A DNA stretch of 28,932 nt, from the IMG/VR virus record IMGVR_UViG_2740892230_000022; one strand, 5' to 3'. Position 1 is the stretch's first letter; each line of letters starts with the position of its first letter. Below, in pieces: positions 15,546 to 24,428 of the stretch. Source of the stretch: a virus. Lineage: Duplodnaviria > Heunggongvirae > Uroviricota > Caudoviricetes. The position numbers and the translations under genes were made by a program. Below the pieces are notes generated by a model that was given only the letters and a program-made list of their open reading frames with translations, was not told where the DNA came from and ran no database searches.

Positions 15546-17167
15546 TTAGCTGTCGGCGAACTTCAGGCCAGTGATCATCGCGCACTTGCCATAGTCTTCA
15601 ACGACATAAGCGTCATTGATGGACTGGTAGGTGGCGATGCGGTTGTATTCCGGCTCGTCTTTCATCAGGCGACGCATTGAACCTTTCTGCCAGTAAATCG
15701 ACAGGTTGTTGAACGAGGTGATAAGCATCGTTGCATCCGGGAAGAACGGCGCAAGGAACACGCCCAGCNNNNNNNNNNTTCGTCTTTCATCAGACGACGC
15801 ATTGAACCTTTCTGCCAGTAAATTGACAGGTTGTTGAATGAGGTGATCAGCATCGTTGAATCCGGGAAGAACGGCGCAAGGAACACGCCCAGCCCGCCAA
15901 TGGTGCGCGATGACAGGATGAGCTGCCCGGCAAGTAATTCCGCATTGGGATTCTGGCCGCTGATGCTGTTCAGCACGGGCAGACGCAGCGAGTTAAACAG
16001 GTTGCGCCCCATAATCACCGCGAGGTCGTCAGCTTCCTTGTGCCATTCATCCAGCAGGGATGAGCGCGCATCCTGTACCAGAGCATCGGCATTCGCATAC
16101 TTACCCACGTGCGCCACAGTGTTGTCCATGTTGCGGGAGGTCAGCGTCACGTCATTCATTACGCGCTCGCTGGCATCGGTTCTGATGTGCTCCAGCCAGC
16201 CCACGTTAACGTCCTGAAGCAGCTTGTTGGTGTGAAAATCAGACTCGTAGGCGTGGGATGTGCCGTTAAAGCCAATCATGATGCGATCAAGCGCTACCTG
16301 CCGGGCGATCTGTGTACTGATACGGGACTGAAAATCGCTGTGGGCCGCCCAGGTATCAAGCTGTGGGTACGAAATAAAGGTATCGTAGTTCACCTGTTCG
16401 CACTGGTACTGACGAGACTTCATATCGATCACGTTATTCGGGTTACGGCGTTTGATGCCGTCATAACTGCTATTCGTGCGCGCAATTGGCCCGGTGGTGT
16501 CCGGGAGGATTTTTTCGCCTTTCTGGTCGGTCACGCCNNNNNNNNNNCTGAAGTTGGACTCATCCGCGTGAGACGTGCCGTTGAAACCGATCATGATGCG
16601 ATCAAGTGCCACCTGTCGGGCAATCTGTGCGCTGATGCGGGACTGAAAATCAGGGTGTGCCGCCCAGGCATCAAGCTGCGGATATGAAATAAACGTGTCG
16701 TAGTTCACCTGTTCGCACTGGTATTTGCGGTTTTTCAGATCAACCACGTTATTCGGGTTACGGCGTTTTGTGCCGTCATAACTGGTATTCGTGCGCGCAA
16801 TCGGCCCGGTGGTATCCAGGAGGATTTTTTCGCCTTTCTGGTCGGTCACGCCGATCACGTTAATTCTTTTCGTAAATTCGGTACTTTCCTTTGAGGCGTT
16901 TTCAAAACGCTGCTGCACCGCGGGTTCCACGGTAAATCGCGATACCAGTGCAGATACCGGGATATTGTTAAGCGACGCCTGCTGCGCCANNNNNNNNNNT
17001 GTAAATTCGGTGCTTTCCTTTGAGGCGTTTTCAAAACGCTGCTGTACCGAGGGTTCCACGGTAAATCGCGATACCAGTGCGGAAACCGGGATATTGTTAA
17101 GCGACGCCTGCTGCGCCATATAGCAACCCAGCTTGTTGCGGGTAATATCTGACATCACCAGATTCAT
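15546..17167 (-). CDS. N: P2 gpN-like major capsid protein (composite across three N10 joins)
   Basis: ...SRFTVEPSVQQRFENASKESTEFT...GFNGTSHA...LLQDVNVGWLEH...FFPDSTMLITSFNNLSIYWQ...YVVEDYGKCAMITGLKFADS* matches P2 N. Start ATG 17165-17167 after AAGGAG. Confidence 0.85.
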
Positions 17168-18181: not shown

Positions 18182-19933
18182 ATGATTCAGGACGCTTTTG
18201 TGCGCCAGCGTGCGCGGCAACTTTACTGGCAGGGTTATCCGCCCGCAGAAATATCACGTCTGATGGGAATAAACCCGAACACGATTTATGCGTGGAAAAA
18301 ACGCGACCAGTGGGATGAAACGCCACCCGTGCAGCGTGTCACGCAGTCCATCGATGCGCGCCTCATCCAGCTTACTGAAAAACAGAATAAAACAGGCGGT
18401 GACTTTAAGGAAATAGACCTGCTGACCCGGCAGCTTAAAAAGCTGCATGATGGCCAGCCGGATGTGATGGCCGCAGGAAAGAAAGGCCGGGCGAAAAAAC
18501 TCAAAAATCATTTCACGCCGGAACAGATTGCCGCACTGCGGGAAAAAATCATCAGCAGGCTGGAGTGGCATCAGCGGGGCTGGTTTGACTCCCTGACCCT
18601 TTGCAGGGAAGCCGGGATACGTAACAGGATGATCCTGAAATCCCGACAGATTGGCGCGACCTGGTATTTTGCACAGGAAGCACTGCTGATGGCGCTGCGT
18701 GACGATGTGGCGCAACCTTACCAGCGTAACCAGATTTTTTTGTCTGCGTCGCGTCGTCAGGCGTTCCAGTTTAAAAGCATTATTCAGAAGGCCGCGGCTG
18801 AAGTTGATGTGGAGCTGAAAGGGGGCGATAAAATCATCCTCTCCAACGGCGCAGAGCTGCATTTTCTCGGCACTTCTGCTGCGTCGGCGCAGTCCTATAC
18901 GGGCAATTTTTATTTTGATGAATTTTTCTGGGTCAGTCGCTTTGCTGAACTGCGCAAGGTGGCTGGCGCTATGGCAACCCTCAGCGGATTGCGGCGCACC
19001 TACTTCTCCACGCCATCCACCGAAACGCACGAAGCATACGCCTACTGGAACGGCGACCGCTGGAACGAGAAAAAGGCCACGCATAAACGCCAGCGTTTTT
19101 CTGTGGACTGGAAAACGCTGCATAACGGGCTTATCTGCCCTGACCGGACGTGGCGGCAAATTGTCACGCTGGAAGATGTGGTTAATCACGGCTGGAAACA
19201 CACCGATATCGACGAAATTCGTGATGAAAACACCGAAGACGAGTTCCTCAATCTCTATATGTGTGAGTTTGTCCGCGAAGGGGAATCGGCATTTAACCTG
19301 AATATCCTGATTGGCTGCGGTGTTGACGGATACGACGACTGGAAAGACTGGAAACCTTTTGCTCCCCGCCCGATGGGGAATCGTCCGGTATGGATTGGGT
19401 ATGACGCAAACGGCAGCAGTGGCAACGGCGACAGCGGCGCTGTGTCCGTGGTGGTTCCTCCGGCTGTTCCTGGGGGCCGTTTTCGAACGGTGGAGACGCG
19501 ACGCGTTCAGGGGCTGGAGTTTGAAGAACAGGCCAGAGTCATTGAAGATTTCACGTATCGCTACAACGTGGAACACATCGGCATTGATGTGACGGGCGGG
19601 AACGGGGAGGCTGTTTATCAGATAGTGAAACGGTTTTTCCCTGCAGCTATTCCGTACACCTTCACGCTGTCATCAAAACGGTCGCTTGTACTGAAAATGC
19701 TGCAAATAATGCGTGCCGGGCGGTGGGAATACGATCGCGCCGAACGCGAGCTGGTCGCGGCCTTTAACGCCGTGCGTAAGGTGAAAACACCGGGCGGCTT
19801 TATCACTTACGAAACGGACCGCGCGAGGGGGAGCAGCCACGGCGACCTTGCGTGGGCAACCATGCTTGCTGTCATTAACGAACCAATTGGCGGCGAAGGA
19901 GAAAACGAGCGTTTCACAGTTATGGAGTTCTGA
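18182..19933 (+). CDS. P: P2 gpP-like terminase large (ATPase) subunit
   Basis: 583 aa. RARQLYWQGYPPAEISRLMGINPNTIYAWKKRDQWD...GGDFKEIDLLTRQLKKL matches the P2 P N-terminus. Divergent from O across 18028-18181. The 440-aa antisense ORF 18254..19576 is treated as spurious. Confidence 0.85.
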   Translation: MIQDAFVRQRARQLYWQGYPPAEISRLMGINPNTIYAWKKRDQWDETPPVQRVTQSIDARLIQLTEKQNKTGGDFKEIDLLTRQLKKLHDGQPDVMAAGKKGRAKKLKNHFTPEQIAALREKIISRLEWHQRGWFDSLTLCREAGIRNRMILKSRQIGATWYFAQEALLMALRDDVAQPYQRNQIFLSASRRQAFQFKSIIQKAAAEVDVELKGGDKIILSNGAELHFLGTSAASAQSYTGNFYFDEFFWVSRFAELRKVAGAMATLSGLRRTYFSTPSTETHEAYAYWNGDRWNEKKATHKRQRFSVDWKTLHNGLICPDRTWRQIVTLEDVVNHGWKHTDIDEIRDENTEDEFLNLYMCEFVREGESAFNLNILIGCGVDGYDDWKDWKPFAPRPMGNRPVWIGYDANGSSGNGDSGAVSVVVPPAVPGGRFRTVETRRVQGLEFEEQARVIEDFTYRYNVEHIGIDVTGGNGEAVYQIVKRFFPAAIPYTFTLSSKRSLVLKMLQIMRAGRWEYDRAERELVAAFNAVRKVKTPGGFITYETDRARGSSHGDLAWATMLAVINEPIGGEGENERFTVMEF

Positions 19934-21154
19934 TGAGCAGAAAAAATAAAAAAGTGCGCATGAGTTCACGCATTGATCTCGCTGATGCGCTCAGGAAAGA
20001 ATCGTCGCTCAGTGCATTCACATTTGATGGTCCTTACCGCCTGACCGGGCATGACCTGCTGGACAATATGTACTGTGCTGATAACGGGCGNNNNNNNNNN
20101 TTTTGATGGTCCTTATCGCCTGACCGGGCATGATTTGCTGGACAATATGTACTGTGCTGATAACGGGCGGTGGTATGAAACCCCGGTGGACTGGTACGGT
20201 CTGGCAAGAGCCGCCCGGCAAACGTCCTGGCATCAGTCTGCGCTTTACTTTAAGCGCAACGTATTGCTCGGGTGCTACATCCCGCACCCGCTGCTTTCCC
20301 GGCAGGATTTCTCGGCGCTGGCGCTGGACTGGTTTGTGTTCGGTAACGCATTTCTTGAGCTTAGAAGCAATATGCTCGGCGAACCGCTTAAATTACGGCA
20401 CGCACTGGCGAAATACATGCGACGCGGAAGCGATCTTGNNNNNNNNNNCCTTGAGCTTCGAAGCAATATGTTCGGCGAACCGCTTAAATTACGGCACGCC
20501 CTGGCGAAATACATGCGACGCGGAAGCGATCTTGAATCATGGTGGTATGTGCAGGATGGCAAGGATGCGTTTCAGTTTCGCCCTGGCAAAGTGTGCCACC
20601 TGATGAATCCGGACATTAACCAGGAAATTTACGGCATGCCGGAATATCTTGGCGCATTACTCTCGGCCAGCCTGTCTCATTCGGCGGACATGTTCAGAAA
20701 ACTGTATTACGACAATGGATCCCACGCCGGGTGCATCATCTACATCGGTGCAGCGCAGGTAAACCGCGAAAGCATGGACTCCCTGAAAGAAACGTTACAG
20801 GGTGCGCGTGGTGGTGGCGCGTTTAAAAACGTGCTCATCCATGCGCCCAACGGGGGCAAAGAGGGGGTGCAAATTTTGCCGTTCCAGCAGATCACCGCAA
20901 AGGATGAGTTCATGAATGTTAAGGCGGCATCCCGTGATGATGTGCTGGCTGCGCACCGCGTTCCGCCGCAACTGATGGGGGCGATGCCGGGCGAAAAAAG
21001 TGCGTTTGGTGATGTGGAGAAGGCCGCGCGGGTTTACGCAATTAACGAGCTGATGCCCGTCATGGAGGCCATGAAGCACATCAATGACTGGCTTGGCGAA
21101 GAGGTGATCCGCTTTAACCCTTACGCACTGTTAGACACCCAACCCACATCCTGA
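19933..21154 (+). CDS. Q: P2 gpQ-like portal protein (composite across N10 joins at 20091 and 20439)
   Basis: ATG 19933 overlaps the P stop (ATGA). Portal-sized product immediately after the terminase, ending next to the intergenic region 21155-21665. Confidence 0.75.
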
Positions 21155-21483
21155 CGCGCTTCGCTTGTCTGCTGCTTCGCTGGGGCATAAAAAATTTATG
21201 CCCCGACTCTCCAGCTCCTGTATCAATCAGATAATTTCACGACGCTTTCCTGCTTATTGCCATCATCGACAGTCAGACTCTTACGCAATCCCACCGCGTT
21301 GATTGCATGTTCTCGCCGTCTCAGTGCGATTTTGACGGCCTTACCTTTCACCTCATCAAATCAAAAGCCCTCACGTCTTTTTCACGCTCAGCGTGAGAAA
21401 TACAGCCATTCTGTTGTGTCGCTGCGACATCGTTCAGGGGATGCTATTTACCCCCTGAAACGCGGGCTGTTCCCCCGTCACCT

Positions 21484-21508
21484 GCGCGCAGAAAAAGCGC
21501 GTTTTTTT
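21484..21508 (+). terminator. candidate intrinsic terminator after the P-Q operon
   Basis: CGCGC-AGAAAAA-GCGCG hairpin followed by TTTTTTT. Confidence 0.45.
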
Positions 21509-21580
21509 GTGCACGCACGGATCCTTGACGGATCCAGCCGCCATACGGGCCGGAAGGGTAAAAAGTCGTTCAAAAAAATT

Positions 21581-21610
21581 GTGCAAATTTGTGCACTTTT
21601 GTGCAAACAA
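21581..21610. repeat. three GTGCA motifs at exact 10-bp phasing with A/T tracts
   Basis: GTGCAAATTT / GTGCACTTTT / GTGCAAACAA starting at 21581, 21591 and 21601. Confidence 0.5.
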
Positions 21611-21631
21611 AAAGCGCCCCTGAGGCGCTTT
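21603..21631 (-). terminator. candidate intrinsic terminator ending the leftward accessory operon
   Basis: On the minus strand: AAAGCGCC-TCAGG-GGCGCTTT hairpin (8 bp) followed by TTGTTTGC. Confidence 0.5.
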
Positions 21632-21665
21632 AGTGTTTTATAGGTTGTGTATATTTGCTGGGTCC

Positions 21666-21929
21666 TTATCCTGCTGTGCTTTCAACTGATGAGGGGAACA
21701 AAATCTTTTCATCAAACCCTGCATTCATATCATGGACAGCAACACACCAATCCATTGACGAACGATTATCAAGAGCCTCCATGATTTCATCCATGCGGCG
21801 TAGGTCATACAGGTAAATGCTTTTATCGCCAATGGTGTAAAAACCAATTTTTTTCGGTGATGGACAGCGATCAAGAACGTCCTGTAATTCGTTCAACCAT
21901 GCCTGTTCTTTTTTTGTCAAAGTTGCCAT
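21666..21929 (-). CDS. hypothetical protein, 87 aa
   Basis: ATG 21927-21929 after AAGGAAA. MATLTKKEQAWLNELQDVLDRCPSPKK... Low-GC context; no family recognised. Confidence 0.5.
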   Translation of the reverse strand: MATLTKKEQAWLNELQDVLDRCPSPKKIGFYTIGDKSIYLYDLRRMDEIMEALDNRSSMDWCVAVHDMNAGFDEKILFPSSVESTAG

Positions 21930-21930
21930 A

Positions 21931-22074
21931 TCAGTTTTCCTTATACGGATTAATTTTATTGTGCAGTGTGTTGAACGGAGCCCATACCACGTCGTTATAC
22001 AATTCAATAACTGGCTCAATTATTTTTCCGATTCCCCATACCAGAATTAACGGGGATATCGGTATCATCAACAC
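21931..22074 (-). CDS. possible small hydrophobic peptide, about 47 aa
   Basis: GTG 22072-22074 or ATG 22066-22068; (VL)MIPISPLILVWGIGKIIEPVIELYNDVVWAPFNTLHNKINPYKEN*, stop 1 nt before the next ATG. No clear SD. AT-rich DNA gives hydrophobic codons in any frame, so this is weakly supported. Confidence 0.2.
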   Translation of the reverse strand: MLMIPISPLILVWGIGKIIEPVIELYNDVVWAPFNTLHNKINPYKEN

Positions 22075-22180
22075 GATAAACAGAATGAGAAACAGAAATT
22101 CTGTTGTTCTACTCTTTCGCGGATATTTTTTCTAAATAATGTGACCATTCATTACCGCCCTTTCGGGCGGCCTCCTGACA

Positions 22181-22393
22181 TTAATCGTTGTGATAACTCA
22201 TAGCTTCATTTGCAGCATCAACTGGATCAACCTCCCTCCAGCAATAATTTGGGTCGGCTCCTTCAGGCGTCCACGGTTCTAATTCATTTTTTGCCGCATT
22301 CTCATCGCCAGTAATTTTAAAAATCTGCTCAGAGAATTTTCTTGCCCACTCGTTATATTTTTCCGCATTAATGGCTTTCTGTGTATTTAACAT
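22181..22393 (-). CDS. hypothetical protein, 70 aa
   Basis: ATG 22391-22393 after GGAGGTG at good spacing. Acidic product MLNTQKAINAEKYNEWARKF... Confidence 0.55.
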   Translation of the reverse strand: MLNTQKAINAEKYNEWARKFSEQIFKITGDENAAKNELEPWTPEGADPNYCWREVDPVDAANEAMSYHND

Positions 22394-22443
22394 AAATACA
22401 CCTCCAGTTAAGGATTAGATTTTATTTACAGCGCTAAATTTAT

Positions 22444-22800
22444 TTATTCAGTTCTGGATTTTGTCACCCTGCGTATCCGCGCTTTCGCGTTACGCTCAAT
22501 CTGAATTAACTTTTCTATATTTTTCCGCCTTTCCTGTTCCTCCTGGCGCAATAGCTTTACATCATCTGCCAGCCTAGTTTCTCTTTTCGCCACAGAGAGC
22601 ATCCAGTCAAATGGCTCCACAACTGCACCGCAGATTTTACAGCGGACCTGACGCTCTTTTTCGTCAACCCGGACAGAGGCGTGATGACAATATGGTCTTT
22701 CCGATGGCTCATAAAGAAAATTAACCTGATTACGAGGGTCATCCTCTTTTACCGGAAATAAAACGATATTGCTTAACTCATCCTCTGGTTTTATTTCCAT
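22444..22800 (-). CDS. hypothetical protein with putative zinc-ribbon (C-HH...CxxC), 118 aa
   Basis: ATG 22798-22800 after AGGAGAGG. YCHHASVRVDEKERQVRCKICGAV, then a basic coiled-coil-like tail. Overlaps the upstream gene by 23 nt. Confidence 0.55.
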   Translation of the reverse strand: MEIKPEDELSNIVLFPVKEDDPRNQVNFLYEPSERPYCHHASVRVDEKERQVRCKICGAVVEPFDWMLSVAKRETRLADDVKLLRQEEQERRKNIEKLIQIERNAKARIRRVTKSRTE

Positions 22801-23239
22801 GCTCCTCTCCTTTGATGCGAATGCCAGCGACGCGTAATGCGTGTTCTAGGTCAATCAGGTAAAGCCAACTGCCATTTTCTTTAGGTATCATGACATGTCG
22901 CTCATCTGCATTTATCGGGTGTCCATATCGAAGGTCGTAGCGAGTCGGTAATTGAACTTCCCGCGCATCCAGTTCAGCAATACGCTTGCTCCCATCAGAG
23001 ATAACGCCTTCGTAATACTCACGCTGCTCGTTGAGTTGTGATTTTGCTTCTTCCAGTCCATCCAGCAAACCAGCGATAATATCCGCTTCCCGATGACGGA
23101 TATGACGCTTAAACGCAGCAAGAGCCGCATCACAATCCCGTTCAGCATTTGGGCTGTCCGGGATAGCCTGATACCACGCCAGCGTCGACTGATAGTTTTG
23201 TGCTGCCTCACGAAGCGCCTCATAGTTAACCTCTCTCAT
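22778..23239 (-). CDS. Ead/Ea22-like family protein (coiled-coil)
   Basis: ATG 23237-23239 after AGGAGGTG. MREVNYEALREAAQNYQ...KRIAELDARE...AGIRIKGE resembles Ea22-like prophage early proteins; assigned from memory. Confidence 0.45.
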   Translation of the reverse strand: MREVNYEALREAAQNYQSTLAWYQAIPDSPNAERDCDAALAAFKRHIRHREADIIAGLLDGLEEAKSQLNEQREYYEGVISDGSKRIAELDAREVQLPTRYDLRYGHPINADERHVMIPKENGSWLYLIDLEHALRVAGIRIKGEEHGNKTRG

Positions 23240-23532
23240 TGAGCCACCTCCTGATAAATCACCGCATGCCCCAGTTTCTCCGCCAGTGCCAGCTCTGCCT
23301 TAGCGCCCGCTGACCGCTGCCAGCCATTCAGCATGTAAATCGCATCCACACAACGAATCATTGCCATGCAAATATCCATGTAGTGCGGCTGTGTCAGCCC
23401 GTCCGGAAGTACTGCCGGGGTTAAGACGGTATGCCCTTCCCGTTTCAGTTCCTCTTCCGCCTTGTGAAACGCCTCACGGTTGAAATTTTCATATCCCGTC
23501 ATTGGACCGGCAATATAAACTCTCACCCTCAC
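23236..23532 (-). CDS. DUF4406 (nucleoside 2-deoxyribosyltransferase-like fold) protein
   Basis: GTG 23530-23532 after AGGAGGTGA. MRVRVYIAGPMTGYENFNREAF... carries the YIAGPMTG N-terminal signature. Confidence 0.6.
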   Translation of the reverse strand: MRVRVYIAGPMTGYENFNREAFHKAEEELKREGHTVLTPAVLPDGLTQPHYMDICMAMIRCVDAIYMLNGWQRSAGAKAELALAEKLGHAVIYQEVAQ

Positions 23533-23951
23533 TCCATCACCTCCTGAAAGTTTCCCCGATAGAACGCCAGCACACGCTGCATAACTTCGCTCCTCCTGCT
23601 CTCACGACAAATTATGTTCTGGTGCCTGTCGTAGCGGCGTATTTCGCCGTCTGGTAACGACCAGATAAGGTCCGGATCAACCACTGCAGGTTTCTTCAGC
23701 TTTGCCCTTGAGAGCTTTTTACGGGCATTTTGCCAGTCCTTACGCGCCTGTTCAGACGGGAATAACCCGTAACCAGAGTTGTATACATCGCCACTGGCAA
23801 CCAGCTCTCTGGCCAGAACGCTCATCAGATATCTTGTTTCCCCAGTTTTAGCTTCCAGTTGTCGTAACGTCTCGCGCCCACTCTGGCGTACGAGTTCAAG
23901 AACCTGCCCTTTAATTTTTTCCCGCTCTTCTTGTGTAAAAACTTTTGCCAC
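23529..23951 (-). CDS. hypothetical prophage early protein, predicted winged-helix DNA-binding
   Basis: GTG 23949-23951 after AGGAGGG. MAKVFTQEEREKIKGQVLELVRQSGRETLRQLEAKTGETRYLMSVLARELVASGDV... Has a paralog at 24085..24413. Confidence 0.5.
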   Translation of the reverse strand: MAKVFTQEEREKIKGQVLELVRQSGRETLRQLEAKTGETRYLMSVLARELVASGDVYNSGYGLFPSEQARKDWQNARKKLSRAKLKKPAVVDPDLIWSLPDGEIRRYDRHQNIICRESRRSEVMQRVLAFYRGNFQEVME

Positions 23952-23995
23952 AAGCCCTCCTGAAAATTACCCCATGACCTGAAATCTGTTACCCT

Positions 23996-24039
23996 CTGAA
24001 TCCCGGCGGAATTTCGGTGTCCGGTTCAGAAATATGATT
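23996..24039. repeat. 44-bp palindromic intergenic element, copy 1
   Basis: CTGAATCCCGGCGGAATTTCGGTGTCCGGTTCAGAAATATGATT: arms CTGAA(T)CCGG and CCGGTTCAG flank the core. Lies 44 nt upstream of the GTG of 23529..23951; the contig ends 35 nt beyond it. Confidence 0.6.
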
Positions 24040-24084
24040 AACACAACGCTGGTTGTTCGTGCCGCTTACCGGGANNNNNNNNNN

Positions 24085-24413
24085 TGGCGGCACTCACGAC
24101 AAATTATGTTCTGCCGTCTGTTGTAACGACGTATTTCTCCGTCAGGTAACTTTCGAATCAGTGTCGGGTCAGCAGCCTTCTCCGGTGTCTTACGCCATAC
24201 GCGATACGCCTGCTCTGATGGAAATACCCCGCAACCAGAGAGCCAGACATCACCACTGGCCGCAAGCGCACCAGATAAACGACGAATAGCGGTCTTACTG
24301 ACACCCGTTTTATCTGCCAGTTGTCGAAAAGTTTCTCGTCCGCTCAGGCGCACGAATTCCACAATGCGCGCCTTCACTTCTTCCCGCTCTTCTGGTGTAA
24401 ATACTTTTGCCAT
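24085..24413 (-). CDS. paralog of the MAKVFT winged-helix protein (3' end off-contig)
   Basis: ATG 24411-24413. MAKVFTPEEREEVKARIVEFVRLSGRETFRQLADKTGVSKTAIRRLSGALAASGDV...PDGEIRRYNRRQNIICREC. Confidence 0.5.
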
Positions 24414-24428
24414 AAGCGCCTCCGGCAA

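Follow-up and report, generated by a model that had tools for sequence, protein, structure and literature searches.

The IMG/VR virus record IMGVR_UViG_2740892230_000022 (Caudoviricetes) is a stretch of DNA of 28,932 nt, referred to in its whole length as the window, in which a cluster of small minus-strand genes (21666-22800) stands beside the portal gene of a P2-like prophage. The last member of this cluster, a 264-bp gene for an 87-amino-acid (aa) protein, is common to P2-like and lambdoid phages, and the genes at 21931-22800 are lambdoid early genes rather than P2 cargo, irrespective of whether the join between the two sides arose as an assembly chimera or by an inversion. The locus holds the following features:

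21611-21631, both strands: hairpin resembling an intrinsic terminator in both directions (AAAGCGCC...GGCGCTTT; T-runs on either strand), on the P2-derived side of the junction
21666-21929, minus strand: 87-aa gene with its ATG at 21929, phrog_1714 or 'ST64T Orf-87' family (PHROG E=6e-51)
21676-21891, no strand: crossover interval from comparison of single-nucleotide polymorphisms (SNPs), with P2-type alleles over 21669-21879 and lambdoid alleles from 21892
21931-22148, minus strand: frameshifted DUF4014 gene (PF13198, phrog_1832; Pfam E=7e-24) with its ATG at 22148 (MVTLFRK...)
21931-22074, minus strand: 47-aa open reading frame (ORF), the C-terminal remnant of DUF4014 by comparison with intact alleles, holding a transmembrane segment
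22181-22393, minus strand: acidic 70-aa protein with an isoelectric point (pI) of 4.5, phrog_4659 (PHROG E=3e-50)
22444-22800, minus strand: 118-aa protein, phrog_1621 (PHROG E=1e-55)
22778-23239, minus strand: Ead/Ea22-like gene for 153 aa (PF13935, E=2.7e-11, above the cut-off)

With 41.0% G+C, the region 21666-22800 is the minimum among all 1135-bp windows of the whole stretch (mean 53.1%, standard deviation 3.9), and no other such window reaches this value. The low-GC cluster described by the original prediction, which had been made from the letters alone, is thus borne out, its estimate of 30-40% being slightly too low. The small ORFs (87, 47, 70, and 118 aa) are present and tightly packed as it had described them, Shine-Dalgarno (SD) sites can be read for the ATGs of the 87-aa (AAGGAAA), 70-aa (GGAGGTG), and 118-aa (AGGAGAGG) genes, and the whole cluster indeed lies in a block without any N (20449-24074), at 3.6 kb the largest of its kind in the window. 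The terminator proposed at 21603-21631 for the end of the operon likewise exists as a GC-rich hairpin with flanking T-runs on both strands at 21611-21631, identical in E. coli 55989 and phage PhiR44_2. Just before it, at about 21577-21606, lie three close direct repeats TTGTGCA(A/C), also conserved in 55989 and PhiR44_2, which may represent a protein-binding site. A second stretch of low G+C (~40-43%) closes the window on its right (27750-28932) and belongs to a lambdoid immunity/early-left region.

To the right of ~21930, the window shows 98.5-99% identity to lambdoid prophages. A megablast search with 21100-23300 gave matches in 2,985 of 5,426 complete E. coli genomes, the best of which (99%) start abruptly at 21663, and exact-sequence look-ups retrieved the identical 87-aa protein from 11,187 collection blocks and the identical 118-aa protein from 6,718. 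All of the 20 contexts listed for these identical proteins (drawn from the longest contigs among the exact-protein matches) are lambdoid, with the gene order cI/Cro/YdaT, replication genes, DUF977, (DUF4406, Ea22), the 118-aa gene and the rest of the cassette, then DUF551 (or small ORFs), hok, DUF968, RusA, and Q. The lambdoid prophage of 2013C-3342, for example, begins with a LexA-like repressor, Cro, YdaT, the replisome organizer, DUF977, DUF4406, and an Ea22-like gene, and continues with the 118-aa, 70-aa, DUF4014 (frameshifted), and 87-aa genes, DUF551, hokD, DUF968, RusA, and Q. The order of DUF977, DUF4406, and the upstream cassette members is the same in loci L001, L004, and L019-L028 of our comparison set. 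In the exo-xis region of the Stx2a phage ArgO145, the stretch from exo/RecT to int contains the Ea22-like, 118-aa, 70-aa, and DUF4014 genes. Among the contexts sampled, the DUF4014, 70-aa, and 118-aa genes occurred in lambdoid surroundings only and never as P2 cargo. The small ORFs are not of unrecognised family, as had been assumed, and all of them belong to catalogued, albeit uncharacterised, families (phrog_1714, DUF4014, phrog_4659, and phrog_1621); the cassette as such is common, with thousands of sequenced E. coli carrying it at 98-99% identity, and is already represented in PHROG and Pfam.

To the left, the assignment to a P2-like phage stands, as terminase and portal are of P2 type and 99.9-100% identical to the prophage of E. 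coli 55989. From 20449 to 21933 (portal, cos flank, and 87-aa gene), the window is 99.9% identical to this prophage, positions 21892 and 21903 being the sole mismatches. No other gene stands between the 87-aa gene and the terminator, cos, and portal in the P2-like prophages of 55989 and 2013C-3342 and in phage PhiR44_2; in all three it is preceded by gpA, ParM, ParR, and a 143-aa (or other) gene. The cos-proximal gpA-gpQ hotspot of P2 (the tin/old locus; Rousset et al. 2022) adjoins cos and portal, and the 87-aa protein is part of its arrangements (WP_000224220 in Table S5, PMC9122126). Standing last before terminator, cos, and portal after gpA-ParM-ParR, the 87-aa gene truly belongs to this hotspot. 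The ParM/ParR pair (StbA + Plasmid_stab_B), otherwise a plasmid-partition system, was observed in the hotspot of 55989 (L002/L015) and 2013C-3342 (L014), and an arrangement of StbA(ParM), Plasmid_stab_B(ParR), and two hypotheticals makes up many entries in the same Table S5 (PMC9122126).

The placement of the cluster at the tin/old site therefore holds in part: it adjoins the cos/portal side of the hotspot, where the 87-aa gene resides in 114 genomes, but its DUF4014, 70-aa, and 118-aa genes are lambdoid only. The genes are low in G+C, mosaic, and accessory, and recurrence in P2-like prophages is confined to the 87-aa gene. No gpA is present within the window, and the genes found upstream in its stead are DUF977, DUF1627, a DnaC-like loader, and a YdaT/Cro-type lambdoid early region. 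The view of the leftward operon as part of the P2-like phage had to be given up accordingly, as all genes beyond the 87-aa gene on its right are lambdoid, including the replication genes (DnaC-like/DUF1627/DUF977). The immediate neighbours on both sides are:

20051-21154, plus strand: P2-type portal gene gpQ, matching that of the P2-like prophage of E. coli 55989 at 99.9-100% identity
21155-21662, no strand: cos-proximal non-coding region of the P2-like prophage, 100% identical to 55989, with unrelated sequence in lambdoid references
23236-23532, minus strand: DUF4406 gene, upstream member of the same lambdoid early operon
23529-23951, minus strand: DUF977/Ren-like gene, upstream member of the same lambdoid early operon
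23990-24074, minus strand: 3'-terminal 85 nt of a lambdoid 'replisome organizer' gene, which breaks off at a gap of ten N (N10) at 24075

What both sides share is the 87-aa gene, whose P2-like and lambdoid copies are ~98% identical over their 264 bp, with homology stopping sharply at both gene ends. The switch from P2-type to lambdoid alleles falls into this gene. With 2013C-3342 as both parents, the crossover could be fixed to 12 bp (21880-21891); this placement was rejected, as other lambdoid alleles (L004-L013) match P2 over 90-216 bp of the crossover interval, within which the L004-type lambdoid allele and the P2 allele are identical. Given such an extent of parental identity, the interval cannot separate recombination from a path switch of the assembler.

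Each of the parental junctions is well represented, that of the P2 flank with the 87-aa gene in 114 complete E. coli genomes and 6 IMG/VR loci, and that of the 87-aa gene with DUF4014 in 581 complete E. coli genomes and 97 IMG/VR loci. The hybrid P2-lambdoid junction was found in 0 of 5,426 complete E. coli genomes and in 0 IMG/VR loci, and strict as well as relaxed patterns gave 0 matches in JGI metagenomes and GTDB species representatives. The scaffold itself contains 34 gaps, each of exactly 10 N, of which 14 are flanked by overlaps of 54-149 bp that diverge by 4-7%, suggesting that contigs of different variants were abutted. Even the portal gene is broken by two of these gaps (20091-20100 and 20439-20448), and the sequence on either side of each is duplicated. 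When placed on the 55989 prophage, blocks of the window appear out of order and in both orientations, with some reference segments used 2-3 times at 82-100% identity (for example, 16792-16940, 19292-19404, and the DUF6645 gene, the latter at 82% and 99%), and the P2-like late region (1-20448) is collinear with no P2-like prophage. The left part thus gives the impression that an assembly graph of two or more P2-like variants, resident together, had been walked through.

Similar irregularities are found on the lambdoid side. At the N10 gap at 24075, the 3' end of the replisome-organizer gene abuts a second, C-terminally truncated DUF977 allele (24085-24428), and these two differing DUF977 alleles together with the truncated genes point to two lambdoid prophages having been spliced there. 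Furthermore, mismatches between the lambdoid part and its best reference are clustered at 21976-22045 and then cease until 23163, which indicates further allele mixing. Since the hybrid is absent from all collections, the parental junctions are common, and the scaffold is scrambled, the P2-lambdoid join is probably an assembly chimera in a badly scrambled short-contig scaffold. A mis-join of the contig to the portal was the very weakness that the original prediction had named for itself; by comparison, this join is indeed doubtful, although the switch does not coincide with a gap.

Turning to the individual genes, the presumed 47-aa hydrophobic membrane peptide is not a gene of its own but the tail of the frameshifted DUF4014 gene. 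The frame running through this ORF matches the Pfam profile with 84.5 bits (cut-off 23.2; profile positions 7-72). Compared to intact 72-aa alleles (VPTLFRKEYPRKS...), one nucleotide is deleted from an A-run after codon 7 (AAAAGAA to AAAAAA at 22126-22131), so that the transmembrane C-terminal part is out of frame. The frameshifted allele is widespread in lambdoid prophages of Shiga toxin-producing E. coli (L001, L019-L028) and is labelled 'frameshifted' by PGAP (NCBI) in complete genomes. This copy is hence a member of the DUF4014 family by descent and probably a pseudogene. Read in the frame upstream, the deletion yields a heptamer A AAA AAT (22125-22133, minus strand AGAAAAAAT), at which a -1 slip would read MVTLFRKK-YPRKS... 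and restore a full-length DUF4014 protein; the heptamer may also be a mere by-product of the deletion. In addition, a GGAGG lies ~22 nt upstream of the DUF4014 start, with a perfect CCGCCC-GAAA-GGGCGG hairpin in between (minus strand, 22150-22180), which could either juxtapose SD and start or act as an attenuator between the 70-aa gene and DUF4014. A literature search for 'DUF4014' retrieved no paper with the term.

The 118-aa protein belongs to a family with a range across Enterobacterales (E. coli, Salmonella, Klebsiella, Serratia, Erwinia, and Yersinia), which is characterised by a conserved N-terminal TETE-ELSNVV-FP motif, a C-x-H...C-x2-C pattern of a putative zinc ribbon (C38, H40, C54, and C57 show no variation among 32 homologues), and a long, almost invariant basic C-terminal helix (NIEKLIQIERNAKARIRR). 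Its AlphaFold2 model comprises a disordered N-terminus, a small ribbon of two short hairpins (predicted local distance difference test (pLDDT) 60-78), and a single helix at 63-117 (pLDDT 76). The match to the TFIIB-type zinc ribbon PF08271 (21.5 bits) remains below the gathering cut-off of 29, and Foldseek ranked the N-terminal domain of TFIIB first (E=0.3), with no significant PDB match. A TraR/DksA-like identity, considered by analogy to lambda Orf73, was rejected, as PF01258 does not match, the ligand pattern is another one (C-x-H...C-x2-C), and the N-terminal DxxDxA helix is missing. The 153-aa Ea22-like gene overlaps the start of the 118-aa gene by 23 nt in a different frame, and several database proteins of ~200 aa (P0004, P0008, and P0040) join an Ead/Ea22-like N-terminus to the 118-aa protein. 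These fusions and the gene overlap suggest that the 118-aa protein works with the adjacent Ea22-like protein, or else that frameshift fusions are recurrent. With its putative zinc ribbon and near-invariant basic helix, it represents a well-conserved, putative early protein linked to Ea22. The 70-aa protein is found, among deposited phages, only in Stx2a phages and in vB_EcoM-Ro157c2YLVW.

The 87-aa protein is acidic as well (pI 4.7) and shares the conserved core RCPSPKKIGFYTIGD...LYDLRR with its family. A small alpha/beta structure is predicted for it with confidence (pLDDT 86), for which no structural relative was found. Homologues exist not only in P22-like phages, but also in Chivirus FSL SP-030 (L017) and the Vequintavirinae phage Av-05 (L018). 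The latter two are 61-71% identical and reside inside arrays of small early genes, adjoining NinC in the former and an 'eae' gene in the latter. Chivirus and Vequintavirinae are virulent groups, and their carriage of this family argues against a role in the protection of lysogens. The 87-aa gene is thereby a real case of a tiny gene moving among unrelated phage types.

With respect to function, the searches for the 87-, 70-, and 118-aa proteins that had been proposed along with the original prediction were successful insofar as PHROG families were found, while PDB and structure matches remained uninformative (profile searches of the 87-aa family, the 118-aa family, and the 70-aa protein against PDB sequences gave nothing below E=0.5). 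None of the 87-aa, DUF4014, 70-aa, and 118-aa proteins matched a defence model of PADLOC-DB v2 at E<=0.1 or an NCBIfam model, nor was a toxin or antitoxin domain found in any of the four with Pfam, NCBIfam, or PADLOC. When the cluster was scanned with a simple consensus, its minus strand yielded no promoter-like site of the sigma-70 type.

Taken together, we propose that 21931-22800 and the genes to its right would constitute the distal part of an early operon, on the replication side, that stems from a lambdoid prophage of Rac/Stx type, carrying a mosaic cassette of the 'exo-xis/nin' kind that comprises, in this order, the Ea22-like protein, the 118-aa zinc-ribbon/basic-helix protein, the acidic 70-aa protein, the frameshifted DUF4014, and the 87-aa alpha/beta protein. 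Because the genes are packed or overlapping and the scan returned no promoter-like site on their strand, they would share the transcript of the replication genes, which starts at the early promoter, in lytic or early development. This cassette would meet the P2 portal and cos only via a crossover inside the 87-aa gene that both phage types have in common. To the explanation as a whole, with the early role of the lambdoid cassette and the assembly chimera inside the shared gene included, we assign a probability of roughly 60%. By analogy to exo-xis genes, the small cassette proteins most likely act early, modulating the development of the phage or its takeover of the host; an exclusion, abortive-infection, or toxin-antitoxin module expressed in the lysogen is less likely. 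Position, operon structure, presence in Chivirus and Vequintavirinae, and the exo-xis analogy all point to a phage-centred early function, possibly in counter-defence, and not to lysogen protection.

Several points weigh against this explanation. The junction lies within the N-free 3.6-kb block, away from any gap, and the SNP pattern is equally expected from RecA-dependent recombination. The simple consensus scan could overlook a real lysogenic promoter, the structure models of the cassette proteins gave no informative match, and the early-modulator role derives from position and analogy alone. Moreover, genes of unknown function in P2/P4 hotspots sometimes prove to be defences (bioRxiv 10.64898/2026.02.27.708500).

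The first of these points leads to an alternative that is unlikely, though not exotic, namely that the junction is real and arose by homologous recombination between the 87-aa copies of a P2-like and a lambdoid prophage on one chromosome, resulting in an inversion or a hybrid defective prophage. In 2013C-3342, one 87-aa copy lies at 1.902 Mb and the other, ~244 kb away, at 2.146 Mb on the other strand, so that the two form inverted repeats, and an inversion between them would generate precisely the order of the window: terminase (+), portal (+), cos, 87-aa gene (-), DUF4014 (-), 70-aa gene (-), and 118-aa gene (-). The 90-216 identical bases at the crossover are long enough for RecA, and the position of the crossover away from any gap fits such an event. 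Against it stand the lack of the junction in the 5,426 complete E. coli genomes and in any contig of the three other collections, even though genomes with both parents are common, and the many joins in the surrounding scaffold that cannot be real. Were the junction genuine, a lambdoid early cassette would have been placed in the cos-proximal hotspot of P2. In either case, the 87-aa gene offers a homology patch by which prophages could be rearranged with each other.

An alternative that is independent of the origin of the join concerns counter-defence, i. e., that the small acidic 70-aa and 87-aa proteins inhibit host restriction or other immunity early in infection. Both are encoded in early operons, the fold of the 87-aa protein is without known relative, and its family extends across unrelated temperate phages as well as Chivirus and Vequintavirinae. 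Such a spread over unrelated phages is typical of anti-defence genes. Neither protein is similar to any known anti-defence protein, however, and acidity alone is weak evidence, which leaves this proposal doubtful.

Still less credible is the reading with which the original prediction had set out, according to which the cluster is variable defence cargo of the P2-like phage at the tin/old site, acting in superinfection exclusion, abortive infection, or as a toxin-antitoxin module with a membrane peptide. Its appeal lies in the low-GC, mosaic character of the region, in the documented P2 hotspot that it adjoins and among whose arrangements the 87-aa gene is found (PMC9122126), and in the antiviral nature of some hotspot genes of unknown function. 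Only this one gene occurs in P2 contexts, however, the others being lambdoid and no gpA standing opposite; no defence or toxin-antitoxin match was obtained from PADLOC, Pfam, or NCBIfam, the membrane peptide is a remnant of the frameshifted DUF4014 gene, no promoter of its own was detected, and the 87-aa family recurs in Chivirus and Vequintavirinae. The combination of a genuine junction, a 264-bp moron serving as portable homology patch that fuses or inverts unrelated prophages, and a new anti-phage or anti-defence factor (for example, the 118-aa or 87-aa protein) appears hardly probable at all. Under the preferred explanation, the locus has little biological weight in itself and serves as a useful caution, as apparent hotspot cargo would have been created where a scrambled scaffold passes from one prophage to another within a short gene common to both.

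Among known systems, the gpA-gpQ hotspot of P2 shares with the locus the boundary formed by cos and gpQ as well as the 87-aa gene as a catalogued occupant; it differs in that the locus has no gpA on the far side, the remaining cluster is not seen in P2 contexts, and there is no defence domain. The 87-aa protein itself is a full-length member of the Orf-87 family of Salmonella phage ST64T (phrog_1714), 60% identical to the copies of ST64T and P22-like phages and without any difference of substance from them. The nin region of lambda (ren to ninI, between P and Q) occupies the same place, that is, after the replication genes and, in intact lambdoid relatives, before RusA/Q. Each consists of small, dispensable genes in an array, headed in the window by a 'Ren-like' gene (DUF977), although no sequence relationship to ninA-ninI was found and the content of the cassette is of the ea/exo-xis type.

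By its location and by following an Ea22-like gene, the cluster corresponds to a lambdoid early accessory cassette of the exo-xis/nin type. It differs from the exo-xis region proper in that the cassette, here and in Rac-type prophages, lies downstream of the replication genes (nin-like, on the pR side) and not in the pL operon, and in that none of the four proteins equals one of the characterised members Orf60a, Orf61, Orf63, Orf73, Ea8.5, and Ea22. The gene ea22 is described as being followed by a variable set of early genes; their transcription from pL sets in very early, and they affect the balance between lysis and lysogeny (PMC8614690). The likeness is found in the architecture, as the exo-xis region downstream of ea22 in lambda and the Stx phages Phi24B and 933W (PMC8614690, PMC7093339) likewise consists of small, packed, non-essential early genes after an Ead/Ea22-like gene, with mosaic content.

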